Source of the DNA: a virus
Taxonomy: Duplodnaviria > Heunggongvirae > Uroviricota > Caudoviricetes
DNA length: 60,814 nt
Virus record (IMG/VR): IMGVR_UViG_3300037418_000950
Strand: one strand, 5' to 3'
Made by a program: the position numbers and the translations under genes. Of the stretch, positions 3,038 through 16,028 are shown piece by piece (position 1 is the stretch's first letter; each line of letters starts with the position of its first letter). The notes under the pieces are model-generated. The model was not told where the DNA came from, made no database searches, and saw only the letters and a program-made list of their open reading frames with translations.

Positions 3038-3529
3038 TTACCCTCTATTTATAGAATTGATGTGCTCACCATTTACCCAATCGGCAAACTTCTCATACGA
3101 GAACATGGTCACCACTCGATAGGCATTTGGTCTGTATTCTTGGGTGTTTTCGAGAATGACAGGAAGCGGAAAGCGTTCCGTCTTGCCATACTGGTAAATC
3201 ATGCGACCAACTTGTGTCCAAAGTCGGGCGACTTCGGTTGCCGAGAGCTTGCCATGCTCCACTGAATCAAATCTCTTACCACGCAAAAATGCATAAGCGA
3301 TCTGCGTTTCACGGGCGGCGTTGCGAACGACCGTCTTGCGATGATTCCTGAGTTCAATGAGCTTCCAAGACGCGTAATCATACGCATCTTCCAAGCCTTG
3401 CTTGTGTTTGGTGGCAACCTTGCGTTCGGTTGCTATAGACTCCTCGCGACGGATGATCTTGGCTTCGCCAGCGAGTTCTTTGATTCTTACTTTAAGAAAT
3501 GTACGTGACATGTTTTGAATATTCTCCAT
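3038..3529 (-). CDS. Hypothetical protein
   Basis: 163-aa ORF with GGAG SD upstream. Confidence 0.7.
   Translation of the reverse strand: MENIQNMSRTFLKVRIKELAGEAKIIRREESIATERKVATKHKQGLEDAYDYASWKLIELRNHRKTVVRNAARETQIAYAFLRGKRFDSVEHGKLSATEVARLWTQVGRMIYQYGKTERFPLPVILENTQEYRPNAYRVVTMFSYEKFADWVNGEHINSINRG
3046..3053 (-). promoter_or_regulatory. T4-type late promoter TATAAATA upstream of hsp20 fusion
   Basis: Exact gp55 consensus on minus strand ~40 nt before ATG 3005. Confidence 0.7.
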
Positions 3530-4017: not shown

Positions 4018-4092
4018 TGGTGTCCCTGGCCAGATTCTAACTGGCAACCGATCCGTTTAGAGTGGATTGCTCTAACATTGAGCTACGGGGAC
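4018..4092 (-). tRNA. tRNA with CUA anticodon (amber suppressor), encoded CCA
   Basis: GTCCCCG-TA-GCTC-AATGTTA-GAGC-A-ATCCA-CT[CTA]AA-CGGAT-CGGTT-GCCAG-TTAGAAT-CTGGC-CAGGGAC-A-CCA; 75-nt cloverleaf, U33, A15:U48, U19-A56. Confidence 0.85.
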
Positions 4093-4259
4093 TTAAGAGG
4101 TTCAATCGATGATCGTTGCGTGCTGTCAATTTTGACATTCGATGCGCCGAACAACCATTTCAAAAAATCGTCTCGGGATATTTGAATTTTGTTTTTATAT
4201 AACCCATCAGATACTTCAATAGTCATATAGACAGGATCAAAAGTAACCTCGATATGCAT
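4083..4259 (-). CDS. 58-aa hypothetical protein whose TAG stop lies inside the suppressor tRNA
   Basis: GAGGGG SD then ATG at 4259 (MHIEVTFDPVY...); stop equals tRNA positions 8-10. Confidence 0.55.
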   Translation of the reverse strand: MHIEVTFDPVYMTIEVSDGLYKNKIQISRDDFLKWLFGASNVKIDSTQRSSIEPLKSP

Positions 4260-4275
4260 TTTCCCCTCGAAACAT

Positions 4276-10320: not shown

Positions 10321-10767
10321 TCATTCCTTTGTAGCTAGATGTTCGTTCAGTGCTTCGATGGTTGGATATTCAGGTATGAACCAACCGTAATGCGGCGTTA
10401 GAGGGTTGACCTTTTCGATTGGCTGATTTTCATCAAGCCATTTGTAGATCGATGAATATCCCTCGGTGATTTCCCGTAGCACCAACAGGAAAGTCGCCGC
10501 GTTGGCGAAGTAGACGGTATAGATTTCCCTATACCATAAGTCGCCAAAAAATATGTCGCTTGTAGCTTCCTGCCACAAGTCGAACTTTGATGGTTTGAAA
10601 ATTAGAGAAAGATAACTAATGACCACATAGAAGTCGTTGGTCATCCCCTTGCGCGGAGTAACGAGCTTGGGACCAACAAGCTCAATTCCATCTGTATGAT
10701 ACACCCCAGGTTTGCCTGATAGCAATACCTCAAATGCAACAATCGGCTTAAAATTTCTTGTACTCAT
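10321..10767 (-). CDS. Hypothetical protein
   Basis: 148-aa ORF starting just after tRNA-Leu. Confidence 0.65.
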   Translation of the reverse strand: MSTRNFKPIVAFEVLLSGKPGVYHTDGIELVGPKLVTPRKGMTNDFYVVISYLSLIFKPSKFDLWQEATSDIFFGDLWYREIYTVYFANAATFLLVLREITEGYSSIYKWLDENQPIEKVNPLTPHYGWFIPEYPTIEALNEHLATKE

Positions 10768-10773
10768 TATAAC

Positions 10774-10852
10774 TGGTAGGGGAGGTGGGGGTCGAACCCA
10801 CAGACGACCCTGATTTTAAATCAGGCGGCGATACCAGTTAGCCTACTCCCCC
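10774..10852 (-). tRNA. tRNA-Leu (UAA anticodon) with short variable region
   Basis: GGGGGAG-TA-GGCT-AACTGGTAT-CGCC-G-CCTGA-TT[TAA]AA-TCAGG-GTCGTCT-GTGGG-TTCGACC-CCCAC-CTCCCCT-A-CCA. Confidence 0.88.
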
Positions 10853-11052
10853 ACTTTTTCGAACCCCCGTATGTATCCTTTGTCATCTGCGAAATACTTC
10901 AACAGATGTTGCCCACAGCGGCAATCTATGTATTTGTCTCCCCCAGGCGTCAGCTTGACTGTACGTCGCGCGCCATAGGGAATGCAAAGAACGTCTTCGA
11001 CAACTTTGACTTGATCGTTCTCGTGAAGATCAGTCAGTAAGAACTTTCCCAA
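10843..11052 (-). CDS. 69-aa hypothetical protein whose TAG stop lies inside tRNA-Leu
   Basis: ORF track; stop equals tRNA positions 8-10. Confidence 0.55.
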   Translation of the reverse strand: MGKFLLTDLHENDQVKVVEDVLCIPYGARRTVKLTPGGDKYIDCRCGQHLLKYFADDKGYIRGFEKVGE

Positions 11053-11170
11053 CCTTGAATTTCTTCCGAGAATATACCTTTTTCGACTTGACTACCTTTG
11101 GTTTGAAAGGTGAGTCTTTCGCGTAAAGTTCAAGGGCTCTATACTTCGGGCGTTTTGAAACTTTTTCCAT
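11030..11170 (-). CDS. 46-aa basic ArfA-like (alternative ribosome-rescue factor-like) protein
   Basis: Hand translation MEKVSKRPKYRALELYAKDSPFKPKVVKSKKVYSRKKFKVGKVLTD; PF(K/R)x(K/R)V-x-K-x-K-K-x-Y-x-R-K resembles the ArfA core. Confidence 0.5.
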   Translation of the reverse strand: MEKVSKRPKYRALELYAKDSPFKPKVVKSKKVYSRKKFKVGKVLTD

Positions 11171-11176
11171 CGCCGT

Positions 11177-11205
11177 AGTATAGACCCTTTCTACTTAAAA
11201 ATCAA
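11177..11205 (-). promoter_or_regulatory. Sigma70-type promoter giving a probable leaderless mRNA
   Basis: TTGATT-17 nt-TATACT-6 nt-ATG. Confidence 0.65.
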
Positions 11206-11403: not shown

Positions 11404-11544
11404 TTATTTTTCCTTATGCTTCTTCATACATTCTTCGATAACTTTTTTGGCCCGTTCAGAGGGCATGTCTCCAATATCGATGTAGAATATTTTCGATTCC
11501 TTGCCGTCCTGAATGCGTTTGATTATTTGAATATCGTTACTCAC
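11404..11544 (-). CDS. 46-aa mini-protein similar to a conserved portal (gp20) segment
   Basis: GTG start overlapping regA end; KIFYIDIGDMPSERAKKVIEECMKKHKEK vs portal RVFYIDVGDMPHAKAQQYVQDIIAKHKSK. Confidence 0.55.
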   Translation of the reverse strand: MSNDIQIIKRIQDGKESKIFYIDIGDMPSERAKKVIEECMKKHKEK

Positions 11545-11956
11545 TAATCTTCTTCTTTCCGCCCATAGAATACTTACTGACCAATTTCCAATTTGGTCGG
11601 TCCTTATAGGCAATCACTTTGATGTGGTTCATCGCTGCCATTGGTTGCAGCATTTCAGGCGGCGAGACAATCTTGCAACCTGGAATCCATTGTTCCAATA
11701 GGGTTGCGATGCGGTTGCGGCGTGCCTTATCTTCTTCGGAAAAATCCGTATCCTTGCCGTCGAGGGCGAACATTTCTTTGAAGTGAACGATGTAGTAGTG
11801 CCCCTGTTTGTGCAGGATATGACAGCTTTGATACAGCGTGTTATCCCTACGGGACGCGATACCTACTCGTTCAAGTGTTTCAAGAATTTTTAGAAAGTCG
11901 TTACGTTCAGCTAATTTCACTTCAATGAACGTAGAAATCAATTCATTATTTGACAT
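11537..11956 (-). CDS. regA: Translational repressor RegA
   Basis: DFLKILETLERVGIAS...LYQSCHILHKQGHYYIVHFKEMFALDGK. Confidence 0.95.
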   Translation of the reverse strand: MSNNELISTFIEVKLAERNDFLKILETLERVGIASRRDNTLYQSCHILHKQGHYYIVHFKEMFALDGKDTDFSEEDKARRNRIATLLEQWIPGCKIVSPPEMLQPMAAMNHIKVIAYKDRPNWKLVSKYSMGGKKKISE

Positions 11957-15666: not shown

Positions 15667-16028
15667 TCAATCTCTTTTGCTCTTTGCTCATTCTGATCAT
15701 GAACATACAGAGCCAATAGTGAATAGTGGATCATCTTGAGAAGGTCTTTGCGATTGTAACCTTCCTTCTTGCCATAGCGTTTGGCATACTTGATTACATT
15801 ACCAAGCGTAAAACCGACGCCATGCCCAGCATCAATGATAATATCCGTCGCCTGATATGTGTCGCCAGCATAGTGTTGTTTATATGTGTCATCAATGTAT
15901 CGAGACAATTCGGATAGCAAGTTGGCTTCATTGAATTTGTAATCGATTGCATTTTCTTCGTCTTCATATTCTTTGTCAGGGTAGATATCCTCAGGAAACT
16001 TGGTTCGTTCCATCTTCACTTTGGTCAT
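15663..16028 (-). CDS. DUF3310 / T7 gp1.7-like (putative nucleotide kinase) protein
   Basis: QHY...GFTLGNVIKYAKRYGKKEG...DLLKMIHY. Confidence 0.7.
   Translation of the reverse strand: MTKVKMERTKFPEDIYPDKEYEDEENAIDYKFNEANLLSELSRYIDDTYKQHYAGDTYQATDIIIDAGHGVGFTLGNVIKYAKRYGKKEGYNRKDLLKMIHYSLLALYVHDQNEQRAKEIE

Follow-up and report, generated by a model that had tools for sequence, protein, structure and literature searches.

The stop codon of orf69, a small gene of an uncultured T4-like phage, lies inside the tRNA-Leu(UAA) gene behind it. We consider it fairly probable that this overlap merely results from genes being packed very tightly around tRNAs in phages, with no dedicated switch, and that the neighbouring ArfA-like gene, as part of the same reading, is a general-purpose early gene not tied to the overlap. 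The analysis covered a stretch of 60,814 nucleotides (IMG/VR record IMGVR_UViG_3300037418_000950), hereafter called the window, whose minus strand holds regA, clamp-loader genes and a sliding-clamp gene. No close relative of the window was found among the deposited phage genomes searched. A small ORF adjoining regA (11404-11613, minus strand) matched part of the portal protein of T4 (Pfam Portal_T4, E = 2.7e-8). The parts of the cassette, together with a second ORF that ends in a tRNA, are listed below.

11177..11205, minus strand: early-type sigma-70-type promoter (TTGATT, 17 nt, TATACT; 9/12 match)
11030..11170, minus strand: 46-codon ArfA-like gene with its own TGA stop at 11032-11030
10843..11052, minus strand: orf69, 69 aa, TTG start, TAG stop at 10845-10843 (from coordinates, orthologues and dN/dS)
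10774..10852, minus strand: tRNA-Leu(UAA) with encoded CCA, a G1-U72 pair and A73 (ARAGORN and Rfam, 51.2 bits)
10321..10767, minus strand: orf148, with homologues in contigs L005 (E = 4e-8) and L002 (E = 6e-13)
4083..4262, minus strand: second ORF ending in a tRNA, its TAG (4085-4083) being positions 8-10 of the tRNA(CUA) at 4092..4018

The 5' end of the tRNA-Leu gene reads GGGGGAG-TAG, with T8, A9 and G10 at 10845, 10844 and 10843, and the 3' end of orf69 reads GTG GGG GAG TAG, its stop being U8-A9-G10 of the tRNA. Positions 1-10 of the tRNA are the final 10 bases of orf69 (10852-10843), stop included. The earlier note on this DNA had placed the TAG of orf69 at tRNA-Leu positions 8-10, which was confirmed by ARAGORN, Rfam and the coordinates; a second example of an ORF stopping at tRNA positions 8-10 was confirmed as well, at 4262..4083 (minus strand) in the tRNA(CUA) at 4092..4018. 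This 58-aa ORF ahead of tRNA(CUA) is a putative gene whose database copies are all identical. The window also encodes a third tRNA, tRNA-Trp, which no ORF enters. As in the published definition of a CDS running into a tRNA gene, orf69 is a real same-strand gene with its stop inside a valid tRNA.

The ArfA-like gene lies directly upstream of orf69 and overlaps its start by 23 nt. The -10 box of the promoter ends 6 nt ahead of the ArfA-like ATG. This promoter-to-ATG spacing was kept between the window (11170-11205, minus strand) and contigs L004 (3707-3748) and L134 (2844-2882), and the same 6-nt layout was found in L002 (9966-10004) and L005 (906-944). Judging from this arrangement, the ArfA-like mRNA is probably leaderless or near-leaderless, conserved in the window and these four contigs; members of the ArfA-like family that are farther off (L007, L008) have ordinary leaders. 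No promoter-like sites were found on the minus strand between 11177 and the 5' end of the tRNA-Leu gene (10852). On the other side of the tRNA, the ATG of orf148 lies 6 nt past the CCA and has no Shine-Dalgarno sequence (window 10755-10776, minus strand), an arrangement kept in L004 and L134. The N-terminus of its product, MSTRN, is new with respect to the relatives, which begin MKP. Processing of the tRNA 3' end might thereby give a near-leaderless orf148 message.

Six base pairs of the tRNA-Leu carry compensatory double changes (three orthologues only), and by this usual comparative test the tRNA is functional. One of them, A6-U67 to C6-G67, also replaces the final Glu of Orf69 by Ala, indicating that the acceptor stem dictates the last three codons of orf69. 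The cloverleaf is predicted to form in its native context, and no alternative RNA fold that competes with it was predicted. In L134, the encoded end of the tRNA-Leu is TCA and not CCA (3271-3275), with the ARAGORN bounds moved by one base at each end (3197-3274); the CCA must therefore be repaired or added post-transcriptionally there.

Direct searches of viral contigs and of word-indexed proteins yielded no homologues of orf69. Its relatives were reached through the ArfA-like neighbour, which led to five contigs, and through one metagenome scan, which gave a sixth. The homologues fall into four lineages, with orthologues in L004 and L134 and more distant relatives in L002 and L005. In L004 and L134 the same ORF enters the same tRNA. 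The homologue in L002/L003 and L005/L006 has 78 or 75 codons; it begins with ATG behind a good ribosome-binding site and carries its own stop, and no tRNA lies behind it. Among the three orthologues, the dN/dS of orf69 was 0.11-0.25 in frame versus 0.5-1.8 off frame, indicating, on this comparative measure, that orf69 is a protein-coding gene under purifying selection; these values ruled out an artefact of ORF calling. An AlphaFold model of Orf69 (pLDDT 88) predicted a small SH3/KOW-like barrel, to which no significant structural matches were found. The gene starts with TTG behind a poorly placed Shine-Dalgarno sequence, whereas its relatives use ATG and a well-placed one.

We compared the junction between orf69 and orf148 across three lineages, as an unrooted comparison, and found three states. 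In L005, 23 nt belong to both homologues, which overlap directly; a dCMP deaminase gene lies between them in L002; and the tRNA-Leu gene occupies the junction in the window, L004 and L134. Homologues without the tRNA have their own stop and a variable tail that makes them 6 to 14 residues longer than Orf69, whereas Orf69 with the tRNA has no variable tail and ends in three tRNA-encoded residues. The ArfA-like/orf69 pair is kept without the tRNA in L002, L003, L005 and L006, and by this comparison the pair does not need the tRNA, whether the latter was gained or lost. We also considered a conserved module of an ArfA-like gene with an SH3-like partner beyond the clade and rejected it, the downstream genes in L008 and G030 being unrelated to orf69. 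Domain searches revealed no nuclease in either orf69 or orf148, and no nuclease or mobile gene accompanies the tRNA. Like the SegB-type homing cassettes of the T4/T6 tRNA region, the locus has small ORFs lying tight against the tRNA genes of a T4-like phage; it differs from them in that orf69 and orf148 lack a nuclease domain and are present in relatives without the tRNA. Since both genes exist without it, the insert consists of just the tRNA, with no gene joined to it as in a cassette. In L002, the last base of the TAG of an Hsp20-domain gene (15965-15967) is position 1 of an amber-suppressor tRNA(CUA), and RNase P would remove part of that stop.

The earlier note had called the gene upstream of orf69 ArfA-like, and profile searches supported this. 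The 46-aa protein alone gave no ArfA match in Pfam, NCBIfam, PHROGs or PDB (none to PF03889 at E<=1), and its alignment with E. coli ArfA was weak (BLASTP E = 0.005). We built a family profile from four close relatives, which gathered 47 clusters of 36-159 residues, mostly 40-60, with the consensus RAxELF..SPFKPKVVKSKKxYxRKxK. Against PDB, the only matches of the profile at E up to 0.04 were six ArfA chains, the best of them with E = 1.5e-3 over ArfA residues 7-54; hhalign aligned the family with E. coli ArfA over residues 9-53 (82% probability, E = 1e-5). Because the only significant PDB matches of the profile were ArfA and the hhalign alignment agreed, the 46-codon gene is, as judged by profile comparison, a remote ArfA homologue. 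In a protein atlas, a cluster of 46 residues is partly annotated as ArfA. None of 51 family members matched Pfam PF03889 at E<=0.01, and 12 of the 51 matched DUF7230. The dN/dS of the ArfA-like gene against L004 was 0.20.

The family consensus has a feature of ArfA, namely a hydrophobic N-terminal segment followed by a Lys/Arg-rich tail. In ArfA, this tail fills the empty mRNA channel, and the protein is active when truncated at Asn47 (PMC5378476). The phage protein aligns with E. coli ArfA (YhdL, PF03889) over the N-terminal region and the Lys/Arg-rich tail, the part that this paper describes as enough for activity, and its 46 aa match the minimal active ArfA in length. It differs from E. coli ArfA in lacking the GKG insert, in having Leu at the position of A18, and in failing to match PF03889, with relatives falling in DUF7230. 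A short, early-expressed ArfA-type gene that is presumed to free stalled ribosomes in the course of infection is also annotated in the pelagiphage HTVC027P as gp30 (PMC12753301), which reportedly matches PF03889 directly, whereas the window's family does not.

The mRNA of E. coli arfA is truncated by RNase III and controlled by tmRNA, and the earlier note had drawn an analogy with this truncated message. The analogy did not hold: the phage ArfA-like gene has its own in-frame stop, a TGA that lies 178 nt before the RNase P site. With its own stop and a seemingly leaderless message, its synthesis would be uncoupled from non-stop rescue. A better account of the ArfA-like protein is that, in large phages rich in tRNAs, it gives general help early on to ribosomes caught on broken messages.

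To place the overlap against a background, we surveyed 2.66 Mb of unrelated viral contigs, collected via three generic T-arm patterns and containing 1113 distinct tRNAs; the ORFs were called by simple rules and not curated, and an upstream ORF was counted if it was co-directional, dominant and at least 50 codons long. TAG or TAA occupies positions 8-10 in 50% of the 1113 phage tRNAs, so that any ORF entering one of these in that frame stops there. No other tRNA lies within 200 nt upstream of 462 tRNAs, and 258 of the 462 have a co-directional upstream ORF. The stop of this ORF falls 3-20 nt before the tRNA in 88 of the 258 cases, touches or lies inside the tRNA in 48 (~19%), and sits exactly at positions 8-10 in 13 (5%). 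The 8-10 stops are the tail of a distribution of very tight packing. The earlier note had suggested a survey of such stops against the one-third expected for the frame; among the entered tRNAs with TAR at 8-10, that frame was used in 13 of 32 (p = 0.24), about the chance rate, which is essentially the comparative half of the outcome that the earlier note had set against its own proposal. In the clade itself, the upstream stop touches the tRNA at three of four independent tRNA junctions (twice in the window and once in L002); compared with the background of ~19%, this hints weakly, and only post hoc (p about 0.02), at an unusual tolerance of the clade for ORF/tRNA overlaps.

Comparable overlaps are known from bacteria. 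Hudson, Lau & Williams (2014) predicted that CDS overlap with t(m)RNA genes gives non-stop mRNAs, smpB-ssrA in Carsonella among them, and counted 250 cases with an upstream CDS in 115,660 t(m)RNA genes (PMC4131195). The present case is like theirs in that a same-orientation CDS enters a tRNA-type gene whose 5' maturation would remove the stop, a consequence deduced in both studies. Such overlaps are rare in bacteria, whereas they made up 48 of 258 in the phage sample, under looser ORF criteria; the gene concerned is here a small phage ORF. A search with the 5' half of the tRNA-Leu also led to a tmRNA gene among tRNAs in the viral contig L014 (5891-6273; IMGVR_UViG_3300037189_025195).

We then looked for a link between ArfA-like genes and such overlaps across phages. 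None of the searched survey records with an 8-10 overlap, including one that is 100% complete and one that is 84% complete, contained an ArfA-like gene. A degenerate DNA motif identified 55 other viral loci with ArfA-like genes, and 50 of these have no tRNA within the fetched stretch. The phages that bear ArfA-like genes are often very rich in tRNAs elsewhere, with tRNAs in 17 of 38 records (fragments; G049-G085, the IMG/VR records behind loci L310-L369) and 16-47 tRNAs in 12 of those 17, for example 47 in one 36-kb contig. For an association test, we took the tRNA regions of 13 ArfA-like-bearing records, with 77 tRNAs that have a co-directional upstream ORF. No excess of overlaps was found in these phages (17/77 versus 48/255 in the background; Fisher p = 0.52), nor an excess of stops at positions 8-10 (1/77 versus 13/255). 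An apparent enrichment of overlaps with ArfA-like genes in a small sample (4/7) vanished at 77 tRNAs. The earlier note had proposed a recurring processing-coupled switch, for which the phage would supply the rescue factor; the existence of the pair without the tRNA, the 50 of 55 tRNA-free loci and the p value of 0.52 all spoke against it.

Such a switch, if selected, would work as follows: tRNA maturation would leave a non-stop orf69 message, the phage ArfA-like protein would free the ribosome, and the product would be untagged Orf69 minus its last three residues, which would escape tmRNA tagging. We consider this unlikely. It would fit the ArfA homology, the presumed position of the ArfA-like gene on the same transcript as orf69, and a cut end 2 nt past the last codon, which is within the tolerance reported for ArfA. 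It would also fit the overlaps at three of the clade's four tRNA junctions and the retention of the overlap in three orthologous phages; the tRNA itself, however, leaves these three no choice but to retain the TAG. The pair occurs without a tRNA in four contigs, overlaps are not enriched in ArfA-like-bearing phages and do occur in phages without ArfA-like genes, and ORFs enter in the 8-10 frame no more often than chance predicts, all of which argue against selection for a switch. The phage family also has Leu at ArfA position A18, and its recruitment of RF2 is only putative. A broader version is that in a clade of soil T4-like phages the ArfA-like gene, orf69, the tRNA and orf148 form one processing-dependent expression unit, in which tRNA excision would yield a stop-less upstream message, rescued without tagging by the phage ArfA-like protein, and a near-leaderless downstream message; we regard this as rather improbable. 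If it were true, tRNA maturation would set protein output on both sides.

Control might also run in the opposite direction. Ribosomes that end translation of orf69 would sit over roughly the first 25 positions of the tRNA and keep it from folding and from RNase P, and a weakly translated, TTG-start orf69 would thus tune tRNA-Leu maturation from the early transcript. The overlap does span the acceptor strand on the 5' side and the first part of the D arm, and the TTG and poorly placed Shine-Dalgarno sequence of orf69, as against ATG and a good one in the relatives, would suit such tuning. We nevertheless judge it very unlikely, given that it left no comparative signal, that chance alone gives this geometry in ~5% of those phage tRNAs that have an ORF upstream, and that the cloverleaf forms in context with no alternative RNA structure predicted. 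Another possibility is a read-through isoform, in which the phage's amber-suppressor tRNA(CUA) would read the UAG on uncut transcripts and extend Orf69 by nine residues, one at the UAG and eight more up to the anticodon UAA of the tRNA-Leu. That anticodon, at tRNA positions 35-37 (10816-10818, minus strand), is the next in-frame stop, a suppressor tRNA is at hand (4092..4018), and of the three stops the window uses TAG least (it ends 7 of 81 long minus-strand ORFs). However, the extension is dictated by the tRNA sequence and differs in L134, it bears no sign of selection, and the tRNA alone explains the TAG at 8-10; we find this isoform scarcely credible. We also rejected a recoding of TAG, since TAG read-through does not merge long ORFs and TAG ends the 7 of 81 just mentioned.

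Maturation of a tRNA 5' end needs a cut by RNase P, and ribosomes that reach a stop-less end are substrates of tmRNA-SmpB or ArfA-type factors. According to the by-product explanation, in one sub-lineage of uncultured T4-like phages, the tRNA-Leu(UAA) lies exactly at the junction of orf69 and orf148. Lacking its own stop codon, orf69 extends ten bases into the tRNA and terminates on the nearly universal U8-A9-G10, and orf148 begins at a new start codon 6 nt past the tRNA CCA. RNase P would cut at 10853/10852 in each transcript that gives a mature tRNA; the upstream arfA-like/orf69 fragment would then end two bases past the Lys66 codon, without a stop. That 5' processing at this site would make a non-stop message, as the earlier note had proposed, follows logically. 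Ribosomes on the stop-less fragment would be freed by the host tmRNA or ArfA-type factors, possibly by the phage ArfA-like protein, whose own gene lies on the fragment that would become stop-less. Co-transcription of these genes, cleavage of the message by RNase P and stalling of the ribosome are, in this scheme, what we infer. By analogy with ArfA, which tolerates 2 nt past the last full codon (PMC5378476), the 2-nt remainder fits a rescue role, though this is true of every 8-10 overlap. The comparative tests gave no sign of selection on the stop-less-message consequence.

Non-stop mRNA from CDS/t(m)RNA overlap is known already (PMC4131195), as are annotated phage ArfA genes (PMC12753301). 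The present work adds modestly to this: one more member of each kind, a junction in three states, rough frequencies for phages and a negative association test. The architecture is ordinary, and the analysis is of use chiefly as a correction and for its numbers. A real coupling would make this a first instance of non-stop translation programmed by a virus that also brings the rescue factor for it. Similar stop-in-tRNA finds should not be taken as switches without expression data, for stops borrowed from tRNA positions 8-10 are common in phages (~5% of tRNAs with a co-directional upstream ORF, at the chance rate for the frame) and have no link to phage ArfA-like genes. The analysis documents a clean example of a tRNA gene placed exactly on a former gene-gene overlap, together with a widespread phage family of ArfA-like proteins of about 45 residues, which the Pfam ArfA model misses and which tends toward very tRNA-rich phages.
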